From: Hyphomicrobiales bacterium
GTDB taxonomy: Bacteria; Pseudomonadota; Alphaproteobacteria; Rhizobiales; Beijerinckiaceae
DNA: 64,000 bases
Assembly: GCA_019247605.1 (NCBI GenBank)
Contig: JAFBAS010000048.1
Location: 2,843-66,842 of the forward strand
Direction of reading: 5' to 3'
Shown: piece by piece, positions 50,248 to 54,238 of the stretch
How the letters are laid out: every line of letters starts with the position of its first letter
Numbering within the stretch: position 1 is the first letter of the stretch
The notes under the pieces: model-generated
What the model was told of the DNA's origin: nothing
Seen by the model: only the letters and a program-made list of their open reading frames with translations
The model's database searches: none
Translations under genes and position numbers: made by a program

Positions 50248-50664
50248 TTATTGCAGCGCCCATCTCCCACGCCCGACGCGAACCGGCGCGCCGGAGGTCT
50301 TCGAATTCCTGCTCAGCACCTGCGATACCGAAAGCTGCGGGTTGCTCGAGCGAAATTTGACACCCGCCGCCTTGAGCTGTCTAAAAATTTCCGCATTGCC
50401 CAACGGCCGGTCACTTCGACGAAGAACACTTTTTATCGCCGCTATCAGCGTCCCGCCCGTTTCTTCCGCCTCCGCGCGCGAACCACCGTTCACTTTTTGC
50501 TCGGCTGCTGCGAAAGCCTGGCTCGTCGCTGAGCTTCTGCCCCGTGATTCTTCGTTCAAAACGGCCTCGAGCGCCTCGATGGCCTGATTGAGCTGTACAC
50601 GTTTTGCGTACAGGTCTTGTATGACGCTGGTGTAGGCGACCCTCCGCTCTCGATTCTTCTTCAT
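50248..50664 (-). CDS. Hypothetical protein: N-terminal coiled coil + C-terminal winged HTH (HARE-HTH-like)
   Basis: GAGG RBS; YTSVIQDLYAKRVQLNQAIEALE heptads; LIAAIKSVLRRSDRPL..EI..L...NP..SV...L....VRVGRGRWAL. Confidence 0.72.
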   Translation of the reverse strand: MKKNRERRVAYTSVIQDLYAKRVQLNQAIEALEAVLNEESRGRSSATSQAFAAAEQKVNGGSRAEAEETGGTLIAAIKSVLRRSDRPLGNAEIFRQLKAAGVKFRSSNPQLSVSQVLSRNSKTSGAPVRVGRGRWALQ

Positions 50665-50763
50665 CGCGTGTCCTCAATATTGTGGTATCGGCCGGGATTT
50701 AAAAATTCAGGCGAGCTTCGTCGGCGGATGCCGCCCGAAGAACAACGACAAGTCTCATGAAGG

Positions 50764-50818
50764 GAGATTTCACGAGATTTCATCTTTGCGAAATCTACGC
50801 GATCACGAAACCGTGATC
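50764..50818. promoter_or_regulatory. Operator-like array upstream of the wHTH gene
   Basis: GAGATTTCA at 50764 and 50774 (10-bp spacing), inverted GAAATCT at 50790, perfect palindrome GATCACG-N4-CGTGATC at 50801-50818. Confidence 0.45.
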
Positions 50819-51451
50819 AAGCTAATTTGCAGGCTTACTCCGATTTCGTAGCAACCACCAACATCGGTATCGATGTCGCGCAGCATGACGGCTCACTCAA
50901 ACCATTGTGAAATGGAGGTGTTTTCCTCGTCGTGTCGAGATCTCTCCGGGTGCCGCGACGCCGCGGCGCGTGATCCACAGGAGACCAATTCAAACAGGGG
51001 ACGAAGGCAAGGAAGAATATATTTGGGGTCGAGAAGAGAATCACAAGGAAAAGAAAGGTCCCCGCAAAGTAGCCAGGGATCGGGATCGACTAGGAGCATC
51101 GACAACTAGACAAAGTGCGCTGCGAAATCTATCTGCCGCGCGCTCTACGCTTCGCGTGCCCGAAATGGCGCGCTGTGGCTCCGCCTGGTAGTGCCACCCT
51201 TTCGGCCAAGAGCATGAATTAGAGATTTATCTGTGAGCAAGCGCCATCGCGAGCCGCTTTTTGCGGGGCAAGCGTTCCTTAGGCACTCCGCACGAATTCA
51301 GAGGCTGATGGGCAGGCACACGGTTCGGTCGACGGGTGAGCTTGCCCGATCGGCGGGTCAGTATCGCCCGGATTGGGCAATTTGCATTAGAGCGCCGCCC
51401 TTATAAGGCGCGGATTGAAGGATGCAGCGCTTTGAACGCAGAATTGCGCCG

Positions 51452-52243
51452 TCAGATCGCCGATCTTCGAGGAAGCTGGAGGAGAGACCTTCCAAGAAAC
51501 AGGTTATCCACATTCTCCTGTCGCAGATCGACGAGCGGCGCCCCTAAGGTCAGGAAGTCTTCCCAGAACGTCAAATGGGTCGCCCCGGTCTTTGCGTCCC
51601 GCCCATTCCAACGGCTGGAGCGCTCTATCTGCGCCGCGAAGGGGAGCGGCTTCTTGGCATCCGCGCCTGTGAAAATGTAGAAGGGATCGATTGCCACCCC
51701 CCAAACGCCGCCGAGCGCCATCACCTGGTAGCCGAGGCCTTCATTCTTGAACCATGGCCTGCGCCCACCGCAGCGTTGCACCACGACGTTTCGTGAAACC
51801 TCAACCGATTCGCGCGTGTTGTAGGCGATCGTGCGCGGTTTTCCGTCCTGGCCCTGAAAATACGCGCGCGGCGCGTTGGGATCGCCCTCGATAACCAATC
51901 CCTTGGCCGCAAAGCGCAAAAGATAGCGCTCGAAATGCTTGCGCAACAGCCAGGACAACACGTTGCGTCCCGGCGCGACCGATTCGATCTCGAACCGCGG
52001 GCGCGTGCGGCTCGCGCCAGGATCCATGATCGCCTCGAACAGGGCGACGAGAATCGGCAAGGGCGTGAAGCTCCAGATCTCATCGCCGTTGTGGATGAAG
52101 GTTCCGGCCCGCGCCAAATCCAGACTTTGCGGTTTAAAGCGCAACGCGGTCCGCAGCCGAATGATCGACAATTGTTCCGGCATCGAGACGAAGGGAAGAA
52201 GATTGACGATTTCCGAAGCTTCGACCTGATGCTTGGTTTCCAT
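51452..52243 (-). CDS. Stand-alone APAZ-like domain protein (no effector domain)
   Basis: 263 aa; EIVNLL...PE, IWSF, WLLRKHFE, W.VAIDPFYIFTG.D..P, HLTFWEDFL follow the motif order I recall for DUF4365/TIR/SIR2-APAZ C-terminal halves; in-frame stop 15 codons upstream of the ATG. Confidence 0.6.
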   Translation of the reverse strand: METKHQVEASEIVNLLPFVSMPEQLSIIRLRTALRFKPQSLDLARAGTFIHNGDEIWSFTPLPILVALFEAIMDPGASRTRPRFEIESVAPGRNVLSWLLRKHFERYLLRFAAKGLVIEGDPNAPRAYFQGQDGKPRTIAYNTRESVEVSRNVVVQRCGGRRPWFKNEGLGYQVMALGGVWGVAIDPFYIFTGADAKKPLPFAAQIERSSRWNGRDAKTGATHLTFWEDFLTLGAPLVDLRQENVDNLFLGRSLLQLPRRSAI

Positions 52244-52382
52244 GGCGCTTCCAAACAGCTTCGTGCCTTTTCTGTCTTCGATACGCTAATCTAATAAGCG
52301 ATGCAACTTTAGCTTTGCGAATGCGCGCAAGCCGAATTTGTTGCGCATTTGCCACAAGCATCAAAAACCAACCGTGATTGCT

Positions 52383-52402
52383 TCTAATTCGGGCGAATTA
52401 GA
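52383..52402. promoter_or_regulatory. Perfect 9-bp inverted repeat between the divergent APAZ and porin genes
   Basis: TCTAATTCG-gg-CGAATTAGA in an AT-rich intergenic region. Confidence 0.45.
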
Positions 52403-52600
52403 TTGAACATGCAATCGCCATGAGTATGTTGCGCGTGTGGCAGGAAAGTCCTGTCACCTCCGTCGTCGACCCACTTAATCCTTAGCGGAGCAAGCGGCGA
52501 TAGCGGGTCTGGGTAGGGATGCCAATGAGTGTTTTCTCAGGGAAACGCGGCGGTGAAGCCCGATCCTACGATACTAAGTTCTTCAACCTTGGAGGTCTAA

Positions 52601-54238
52601 ATGAAGCTCGTTAAGAGCCTTCTCCTCGGGTCCGCCGCGGGTCTCGTCGCGGTCGCCGGGGCGCAGGCAGCCGATCTTCCCACAAAGAAGGCGGCACCTG
52701 TGGACTACGTCCGGATCTGTAACGTCTACGGCCCGGGCTTCTTCTACATTCCTGGCACCGACACCTGCATTAAGGTCGGCGGCAAGGCGGAGTTCGACCT
52801 CGAGTGGGATGAGGCTCGCGCCCACTCGGATCCCACCGTCGGTTATAATGCCCTTGCTCGCGTGAACTTGGACGCTCGTACAGCGACCGATTGGGGCTTG
52901 TTGCGCGCTTTCGTGCAGATCGACATCCGTCGCCGCACGGGCGCCTGGTACGGGTCCGGCACATCCGCTCGTCAAGGCTTCGGTGTCGTCTATGGCGGCG
53001 GCGTCAACCCGGGCAATGGGTTCTCGAGCTTCGCCGGCGTGAATACCTTCTCCCCGTCATACGGCGTCCAGCTCGAGTCGAGCTTGAATGCCGATAAGGC
53101 CTTCATCCAATGGGGCGGGTTGACGGCTGGTCGCTTCCAGTCCTTCTTCGACTTCTATGCCGACAACGACAACTTCCATGGCATGGGCGATTCGGATTCG
53201 ACGACGCAAGGCCTCGCCTACACCTACGCGTTCGGGAACGGCTTCTCGGCGACGGTGGCGATCGAAGACGGGGCCGAACGGCGCAACGTGGTCGGCAGCG
53301 TGGGCACGGTTGCTGGTGGTGCCATCTTCCCGAGCTCGTTCGCCGGAGCGGCAGCCACGAACTTCGCTATCACGTTCCCAGCGGCGGGCAATCCGCTCTT
53401 CGCCGCATCTACGGTGAACGGTGGACTAGTGCCGGCATTCGACGCGGGACAGCGCCAAGTTGCGCCCAACGTGGTCGGTGTGTTGCGTGTTGACCAAGCC
53501 TGGGGTTCTGCTCAGTTGTCTGGCGTCTGGGACCATATCAGCACGCAAGGCTCGGTCACGACTATACCGGGTGCTGCCCCTGGCGCCAGCAGCGTCAATG
53601 GGGGTTTCGGCTCGCTGACACAAGAGGGCTGGGCCGTCCAGGGCGGCGTGAAGATCAACCTGCCGATGATCTCAGCCGGCGACGACATCTGGGTCGAGGG
53701 CGCCTACTCGCATGGCGCGACCACCTTCACCAACAGCGGTTATCCGGGCCAGGGATCGGCCACGGCCAACCAGTTCGGCGCGAGCACGCTCAACCTGTAT
53801 GACGGGATCGTCAATCCGGAAGGCAAGCTCAAGCTGACGAATAGCTGGTCGGTGATGGCGGACTACCTCCACTACTGGACCCCGAGCATTCGTGAAGCCT
53901 TCTTCGGCAGCTACTACAGGCAGAGCTACGGCCACGCGATCCGGTCGGCCGCGGGCTTCGCCGAGGGCGCTGCATGCCCGACTTGCGTCGGGACAGTGAC
54001 CACCGCGAGCGGTGCCAACTTCAACCCCTTCTCGCCCTTCTACACGGATGGCGCGCAGTGGCAGGTCGGCACCAACGTCGTCTGGTCGCCGGTCAAGAAC
54101 CTCGATATCGGCGTCGAAGTCATCTACGTGGCGAACGACGACGCGCATCGTCACTTCGATCCGAATCGCGGATATCCGTTCCTTGCGAACGGCGATGCCC
54201 AGTGGCTCAGCCGCTTGAAGATCTCTCGCGCGTTCTGA
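52601..54238 (+). CDS. Alphaproteobacterial porin (Omp2b/RopA family)
   Basis: MKLVKSLLLGSAAGL..AQAADLP.KKAAPVDYVRIC..YG.GFFYIPGTDTCIKVGG; terminal Phe; GGAGG RBS. Confidence 0.95.
   Translation: MKLVKSLLLGSAAGLVAVAGAQAADLPTKKAAPVDYVRICNVYGPGFFYIPGTDTCIKVGGKAEFDLEWDEARAHSDPTVGYNALARVNLDARTATDWGLLRAFVQIDIRRRTGAWYGSGTSARQGFGVVYGGGVNPGNGFSSFAGVNTFSPSYGVQLESSLNADKAFIQWGGLTAGRFQSFFDFYADNDNFHGMGDSDSTTQGLAYTYAFGNGFSATVAIEDGAERRNVVGSVGTVAGGAIFPSSFAGAAATNFAITFPAAGNPLFAASTVNGGLVPAFDAGQRQVAPNVVGVLRVDQAWGSAQLSGVWDHISTQGSVTTIPGAAPGASSVNGGFGSLTQEGWAVQGGVKINLPMISAGDDIWVEGAYSHGATTFTNSGYPGQGSATANQFGASTLNLYDGIVNPEGKLKLTNSWSVMADYLHYWTPSIREAFFGSYYRQSYGHAIRSAAGFAEGAACPTCVGTVTTASGANFNPFSPFYTDGAQWQVGTNVVWSPVKNLDIGVEVIYVANDDAHRHFDPNRGYPFLANGDAQWLSRLKISRAF

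Follow-up and report, generated by a model that had tools for sequence, protein, structure and literature searches.

A standalone APAZ gene beside a porin gene

The 64,000-nucleotide stretch of DNA analysed here (hereafter the window; assembly GCA_019247605.1, contig JAFBAS010000048.1, positions 2,843 to 66,842) belongs to an uncultured Hyphomicrobiales bacterium of the family Beijerinckiaceae and carries an open reading frame (ORF) that encodes a 263 aa APAZ protein, flanked by a divergent porin gene on one side and, across a non-coding spacer, by a HARE-HTH gene on the other (Table 1). APAZ is regarded as an obligate adaptor that places an effector under the control of a short prokaryotic Argonaute (pAgo). 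The original prediction, made from the letters alone, had described this ORF as an orphan APAZ domain with neither an effector nor an Argonaute beside it, and had offered four roles for it: a decoy or dominant-negative regulator, a partner of an Argonaute encoded elsewhere, a domesticated nucleic-acid-binding module, or a relic.

The 263 aa translation is intact and contains every motif on which that identification was based, in the predicted order (SEIVNLLPFVSMPE, DEIWSF, LSWLLRKHFER, RAYF, WGVAIDPFYIFTGADAKKP, HLTFWEDFL). A GGAAG Shine-Dalgarno-like motif, kept in the orthologues, lies ~6 nt 5' of the ATG, and the 15th in-frame triplet upstream of this ATG is a TAG stop codon (cta on the + strand, 52286-52288), in agreement with a stop-to-stop frame of 277 aa. 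The proposed start at the domain boundary also holds, as similarity between the standalone protein and the long forms described below sets in at residue ~406-414 of the latter, and the sequence upstream of the ATG offers a stop codon and no real similarity. An apparent 68-residue upstream extension of the similarity in two loci (L002 and L031) was rejected, with few identities and a stop within it. No N-terminal effector of the SIR2, TIR, DREN/Mrr or HNH kind is fused to the APAZ domain in this ORF.

Table 1. Features of the APAZ locus, in positions of the window.
Feature	Position	Strand	Description
Standalone APAZ gene	51452..52243	-	263 aa plus stop; ATG start; complete N-L1-L2-like APAZ fold, no effector domain
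Divergent intergenic region, porin/APAZ	52244..52600	.	Conserved among congeners; 7 type-D loci compared
Porin_2-family outer-membrane porin gene	52601..54238	+	545 aa; 79% identical to the L006 gene carrying PF02530
Spacer downstream of the APAZ gene	50665..51451	.	787 bp; place of the pAgo in the parent operon
HARE-HTH protein gene	50248..50664	-	138 aa; Pfam PF05066, E 4.1e-6

The 263 aa protein is a complete APAZ domain

Neither Pfam nor NCBIfam recognised the 263 aa protein, and a PDB search with the single sequence returned noise only. Four of the PADLOC Aga_*-PNTD1-PNTD2 models, which describe partner proteins of short pAgos, do match it: the best is PDLC02402, of the SIR2 type (E 2.8e-15, model positions 586-821 of 876), followed by PDLC02418 (E 2.2e-13), PDLC02415 (E 2.8e-9) and PDLC02398 (E 1.1e-6). 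A profile built from 37 family members (A2) was then used both for a PDB profile search and for an AlphaFold2 model. The profile retrieved one solved protein, chain A of 9OM4 (residues 171-363, E 2.5e-8), a structure of SPARHA solved by cryo-EM, in which a short pAgo pairs with HNH-APAZ (PMC12738770). The AlphaFold2 model has a mean predicted local distance difference test (pLDDT) score of 89.6 and a predicted template modelling (pTM) score of 0.87. When it was compared with the PDB by Foldseek, the top 50 matches were all APAZ-bearing chains of SPARHA, SPARDA, SPARTA or SPARSA complexes, with E values down to 5e-11, query-normalised template modelling scores (TMq) of 0.49-0.67 and 256-283 aligned columns, that is, nearly the whole protein. 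By PADLOC models, family profile and predicted structure, the 263 aa protein is a genuine and complete APAZ domain with a resemblance far beyond chance, and both the original identification and the structural match to SPARTA, SPARSA and SPARDA anticipated with it are borne out.

The standalone gene is conserved by selection within one genus

Among 301 Beijerinckiaceae genomes, seven carry the standalone gene, all from the window's genus, of which nine genomes were sampled; the 292 genomes from 52 other genera lack it, and two of these carry a long form. Pairwise comparison of nine genomic APAZ copies gave ratios of nonsynonymous to synonymous substitutions (dN/dS) of 0.07-0.18, with unsaturated pairs at 0.076 (dS 0.27), 0.18 (dS 0.48) and 0.08 (dS 0.76). 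These values lie in the same range as those of the flanking genes (0.02-0.26 for the HARE-HTH gene and 0.09-0.37 for the porin gene). Stop codons interrupt none of the genomic copies, all 31 standalone sequences collected are intact, and G130 has two copies, both intact, with 63% identity to each other. The standalone APAZ gene is thus under strong purifying selection, and the dN/dS near 1, frame disruptions and patchy retention expected of a relic were not observed. In relatives, too, this locus is occupied by the standalone gene, a recurrence that the original prediction had named as a check, and the combination that it held would refute it, a full operon in close relatives together with relaxed selection here, was seen in neither of its parts.

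No Argonaute accompanies the standalone gene

The window's genome is a metagenome-assembled genome (MAG) of 191 contigs and 98.85% completeness. Within it we found no match to Pfam Piwi, none to the PADLOC models pAgo_I PDLC02376 and pAgo PDLC02436 at E<=1, none among six-frame ORFs to a hidden Markov model (HMM) of four cognate pAgos at E<=10, and none by tblastn to pAgos or to the SIR2-Schlafen parts of two long forms. At the locus itself, tblastn with cognate short pAgos failed to match the 787-bp spacer at E<=1; the spacer contains no ORF longer than 94 aa and holds no detectable pAgo remnant, and the flanks of the window's gene and of nine orthologous loci showed no remnant of a pAgo or SIR2 gene at E<=1. 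Concomitantly, five congeners that carry the gene (G093, G130, G164, G191 and G214) contained no pAgo beyond noise of 36-43 residues; one of these, G093, is a 100% complete genome of 3 contigs. The absence of an Argonaute beside the gene, as first noticed in the window, therefore extends to the whole genome and to five congeners, in which no short pAgo was found either beside APAZ or elsewhere.

The choice of model matters for such statements. At E<=0.1, Pfam Piwi (PF02171) fails to recognise 500 aa short pAgos that PADLOC scores at E 1e-131 to 1e-136; since it misses the cognate short pAgos, claims of "no Argonaute" need PADLOC-type models. The sensitivity of PDLC02376 is illustrated by a pAgo fragment that it scored at E 1e-107 although identity to the cognate pAgos is just 33%, and in the two genomes of the family sample with a long form a pAgo lies directly downstream of it.

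A further genome of the same genus (G052) holds a 261 aa ORF (L025:5726-6511) whose match to the short-pAgo model is confined to positions 199-455 (E 1e-107). This is an orphan, 5'-truncated PIWI half with no recognisable APAZ or effector upstream, in a genome that has neither the APAZ nor the HARE-HTH gene, and it is what a real relic in this genus looks like.

The standalone clade is nested among SIR2-Schlafen-APAZ proteins

An exhaustive profile search yielded ~57 relatives at E<=1e-30. The nearest are long forms, of 835-862 aa where full-length, with the APAZ domain at the C terminus (residues ~575-840) and N-terminal parts that match SIR2_2 and HATPase_c_4 (Schlafen-associated); comparison with PMC6299218 identifies them as the APAZ orthogroup "SIR2_1 fused with Schlafen". 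In a maximum-likelihood tree of 88 APAZ domains, computed with the "quick" search setting, all 31 standalone sequences form one clade (Shimodaira-Hasegawa-like approximate likelihood ratio test, SH-aLRT, 100) that is nested within the long forms and has a stem of 0.8 substitutions per site. This clade lies inside a larger one of 46 rows (support 100), whose other members include SIR2 proteins of 837-862 aa (P0055, P0056, P0064 and G272), a 682-aa long form (G278) and partial sequences.

The gene neighbourhoods separate in the same way. A scan with one genome per species recovered 56 loci, 50 of them with a long form and six standalone: a short pAgo lies directly downstream of the long form in 50/50 and a porin adjoins it in 0/50, and for the standalone loci the counts are 0/6 and 6/6, respectively. 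Two metagenomic long-form loci show the APAZ gene followed, with an overlap of ~35 nt, by a gene for a 500 aa protein (L008:1030-2535 and L009:2510-4012), which PDLC02376 identifies in both cases as a full-length Class I short pAgo (E 1e-131 and 1e-136). The long-form system occurs in Acidobacteriota, Alphaproteobacteria, Polyangiaceae and on a Mesorhizobium plasmid, where it lies in a defence island under the annotations "SIR2 family protein" and "hypothetical protein", and it is also present in the same family as the window (Methylocapsa aurea).

Judged by phylogeny and gene order, the standalone gene descends by a single truncation from a SIR2-Schlafen-APAZ/pAgo operon. Its ancestor was the C-terminal APAZ part of a protein of ~850 aa with SIR2, Schlafen-like (HATPase_c_4) and APAZ regions, encoded upstream of a short pAgo in an immune operon of the S1B, SPARSA type. 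One ancestor of this uncultured Beijerinckiaceae genus lost the SIR2-Schlafen part and the pAgo gene, leaving an ORF that begins exactly at the APAZ boundary, and a burst of change followed, of which the long stem branch, the replacement of invariant residues and the missing acidic C-terminal tail are the traces.

Positions invariant in Argonaute-partnered APAZ domains are replaced

We compared conservation between the 31 standalone sequences and the APAZ domains of the 29 nearest long forms. Both groups conserve 32 core positions, and 34 further positions are conserved in the standalone clade only. A set of five positions, 97-100% invariant among the long forms, differs in the standalone clade, and all five lie within the helices at 202-232: R has become W212, V has become G220 and D has become H223, with the new residues conserved, while N at 217 and T at 210 have become variable. 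As read from the alignment, the distant HNH-APAZ of 9OM4 retains four of these five, either unchanged or as conservative substitutions (K, N, V and E). The C-terminal tail beyond profile position 252 differs as well, with a median of 19.5 aa and 25% D+E in the long forms against 11 aa and 0% D+E in the standalone proteins; in SPARTA, an acidic APAZ tail sits in the nucleic-acid cleft between Ago and APAZ (PMC10899771). The replaced residues and the shorter, non-acidic tail are signs of a changed function, and they bear indirectly on the heterodimer that effector-APAZ subunits form with a pAgo, in which these subunits contribute to the guide/target cleft. The median isoelectric point (pI) is 9.75 for the standalone proteins and 9.23 for the APAZ domains of long forms.

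A porin gene is the one recurrent neighbour

The Porin_2 gene is the sole recurrent neighbour of standalone APAZ and adjoins it in every resolvable locus, in three arrangements. The two genes are divergent (type D) in the window, in six congeners and on the P0032 contig; they stand in tandem, porin then APAZ (type T), in L006/L007, at the second copy in G130 and on contigs P0018, P0027 and P0047; and they are convergent on the P0028 contigs. On contigs P0024, P0016 and P0011, an unannotated gene of fitting size and place runs off the contig end. With just two full porin copies and one fragment in the window's genome, an abundance of paralogues does not account for the adjacency. Inverted repeats that could explain the changing orientation of the two genes were looked for and none were found.

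The porin phylogeny does not follow that of APAZ. In G130 (loci L029 and L034), the type-D porin is closest to the type-T porin of L006 (dN 0.062), and the type-T porin is closest to the type-D porins of the window and G164 (dN 0.07-0.08), which suggests that porin paralogues have been exchanged or converted between the two locus types.

The intergenic region of the type-D loci contains two conserved, operator-like inverted repeats. One, at 52338-52357, has 7-nt arms and a 6-nt spacer (TTGTTGC-N6-GCAACAA, with TTGTGGC and hence one mismatch in the window); the other lies at 52384-52407 (CTAATTCG...CGAATTAG). Both are absent from the tandem-type loci. This region may hold operator and promoter sequences.

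Downstream of APAZ, the part of the spacer that adjoins the gene differs among congeners both in length (about 550-1200 bp) and in sequence. Within this otherwise unalignable spacer, a block of ~100 nt on the reverse strand (51036-51137; GCAGATAGATT..CTTTGTCTAGTTGTCGATGC..TTCCTTGTGATTCT) is kept in six congeners. An Rfam scan of 49.8-52.8 kb at E<=1, which covers the block, gave no match; the block could be a promoter, an element of a long 5' untranslated region or a small RNA.

The HARE-HTH gene beyond the spacer occurs in exactly the same seven genomes of the family sample as standalone APAZ, all of them kin. Loci of the tandem and convergent types lack it, and the HARE-HTH protein is a possible partner of the APAZ protein. 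The gene is preceded by a near-invariant leader of ~100 nt (50753-50846) with two inverted repeats able to form hairpins (TCACGGTTTCGTGA; ATCTCGTGAAA...TTCATGAGA). Co-transcription of the HARE-HTH gene with APAZ was considered and rejected, given its own conserved leader, the variable spacer and its absence from type-T loci. At two tandem loci, a gene for a 243 aa sigma-70 r2/r4_2 factor resembling extracytoplasmic function (ECF) sigma factors lies 20-33 nt 3' of APAZ (L006:8810-9541 and L041:7810-8538). The two factors are 80% identical, and each gene probably forms one operon with APAZ. On the contig of a basal member of the standalone clade (P0025), an 83-aa gene and the cas1 of a cas1-cas2 pair lie just downstream of APAZ and are convergent with it.

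Discussion

We consider that the 263 aa protein is a domesticated, Argonaute-independent APAZ module, derived from a SIR2-Schlafen-APAZ/pAgo operon and kept under selection, with a function that we infer, and we put the probability of this reading at roughly 70%. The gene is intact and strongly selected in genomes that lack an Argonaute, which argues that its product works without an Ago and without an enzymatic head. That an APAZ protein can be stable in the absence of its pAgo is also in favour of Ago-independence, as free LheHNH-APAZ has been purified (PMC12738770). The standalone APAZ probably has a new, Argonaute-free job; of the four roles first offered, that of a domesticated module is the one favoured by the evidence. 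The protein would act as a basic binding module (median pI ~9.7) for nucleic acid or for a new protein partner.

Where it might act is suggested by the neighbourhood. As the Porin_2 gene adjoins APAZ through three orientations, a local action on the porin gene or its transcript would be the most plausible; alternatively, the protein may act with the transcription-linked neighbours of the two locus types, the HARE-HTH protein or the ECF-like sigma factor. An Argonaute lobe exapted as a nucleic-acid-binding local regulator of the porin gene, or as an accessory of the HARE-HTH protein or sigma factor, is a tentative proposal, and we regard it as rather improbable in this specific form.

Several observations weigh against domestication or against its proposed setting. 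A basic pI is common to Ago-partnered APAZ domains and is therefore not specific to the standalone protein. The upstream regions of type-D and type-T loci have no conserved element in common, and the downstream neighbours differ from locus to locus (HARE-HTH, sigma factor, MFS transporter, integrated element or cas1-cas2). Since all carriers belong to one genus-level lineage, the adjacency of the porin and HARE-HTH genes could be inherited synteny, and since they are uncultured or closely related, the evidence from neighbourhoods is not independent. Finally, a plasmid-borne pAgo could be missed in a fragmented MAG of 191 contigs, a concern that does not apply to the 3-contig congener.

This last point leads to the possibility that the protein serves in trans as a subunit of an Argonaute whose gene lies elsewhere in the genome or on a replicon missing from the assembly. 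In favour of it, the 2018 census placed 37% of all APAZ genes outside a distance of 10 genes from a pAgo (PMC6299218), and the fragmentation of the window's genome would leave room for it. However, no pAgo appears in that genome even at E<=10 with the cognate HMM, nor in the five congeners, the 100%-complete one included; PDLC02376 is sensitive enough to have found a fragment of 33% identity, and the sole congener with a pAgo fragment lacks the APAZ gene. We therefore regard a distant Argonaute partner as highly improbable. Equally improbable is a decaying, functionless remnant of a broken SPARSA-type operon. The gene clearly goes back to an operon of this kind, of which the parts on either side of APAZ were lost, and the spacer at the former place of the pAgo is variable and non-coding. 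Yet the reading frame is intact in all 31 sequences and all genomic copies, its dN/dS equals that of neighbouring housekeeping genes, so that selection is strong and not relaxed, the start codon and ribosome-binding motif have been kept, conservation is new at 34 positions in the clade, G130 has retained two intact copies despite their divergence, and the PIWI half of G052, the real relic of the genus, looks different.

A decoy, by which the protein would bind the short pAgo of an incoming (for instance plasmid-borne) or past resident SIR2-APAZ/pAgo system and block formation of the toxic complex, deserves more weight than either of these, and we still hold it to be unlikely. The complete APAZ fold is retained, the 32 core positions common with the long forms are still conserved, and the parent system is mobile, found in Acidobacteriota, Alphaproteobacteria and Polyangiaceae and in the Mesorhizobium plasmid defence island, and occurs within the family in Methylocapsa aurea; the role is thus conceivable. 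On the other hand, the carriers have no pAgo to inhibit, and the gene is chromosomal and vertically inherited at a fixed locus, not part of a mobile element. Support from phages or plasmids did not emerge, as tblastn of a phage collection gave no match, the sole plasmid match was a long form, and the BFVD contained no viral structural relative at E<=0.001. Besides, the positions that are invariant in Ago-partnered forms, and conservatively kept even in HNH-APAZ, are the ones replaced here, and steady purifying selection (omega ~0.1) across dS>1 would be hard to sustain by sporadic encounters.

Among known systems, the closest is the SIR2-(Schlafen-like)-APAZ group of S1B (SPARSA type; og_40, Ryazansky et al. 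2018, PMC6299218; PDLC02402), whose APAZ domain is the same, with 36-48% identity across residues ~12-257. The standalone clade is phylogenetically nested inside this group and belongs to it by descent, but it lacks the SIR2 domain, the Schlafen/HATPase_c_4-like middle, the acidic C-terminal tail and the adjacent short pAgo, and several of the invariant positions are replaced. The best match of solved structure is the HNH-APAZ of Acidithiobacillus caldus SPARHA (9OM4; profile E 2.5e-8, fold E 5.3e-11, TMq 0.67), with which the FW..FL helix motif is common although sequence identity is only 18%. That protein carries an HNH nuclease, forms a heterodimer with its pAgo and assembles into filaments on target DNA (PMC12738770), whereas the standalone gene comes with neither effector nor Ago. 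The partner of the Archaeoglobus fulgidus Argonaute, likened here by its published description (PMC10954474), is also a separate protein of N-L1-L2 only, without an enzymatic effector; it forms a functional heterodimer with AfAgo, whereas the genome of the standalone APAZ has no Argonaute.

The 2018 census had already tallied isolated APAZ proteins, without another recognised domain (4+6 in groups Ia/Ib, 16 in IIa, 100 in IIb, plus group III; PMC6299218). There they were counted only, and those of the SIR2 groups were read as scattered losses; here a whole clade has a single origin, is free of Ago at the level of genomes, evolves under purifying selection and shows remodelling of conserved sites. 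Literature searches on orphan or standalone APAZ gave nothing relevant, and we found no earlier account of an APAZ clade with a single origin that is Ago-free at the genome level and conserved by selection.

As the clade has long kept the fold without either partner, APAZ appears to have a selectable activity of its own, in binding nucleic acid or protein. The standalone protein offers a natural, non-toxic minimal APAZ for biochemistry, and the gene is an example of how parts of defence systems are recycled into host genes. If its proposed role as a porin-gene regulator or transcription accessory is true, it would be the first APAZ/N-L1-L2 module to work outside guide-directed immunity.

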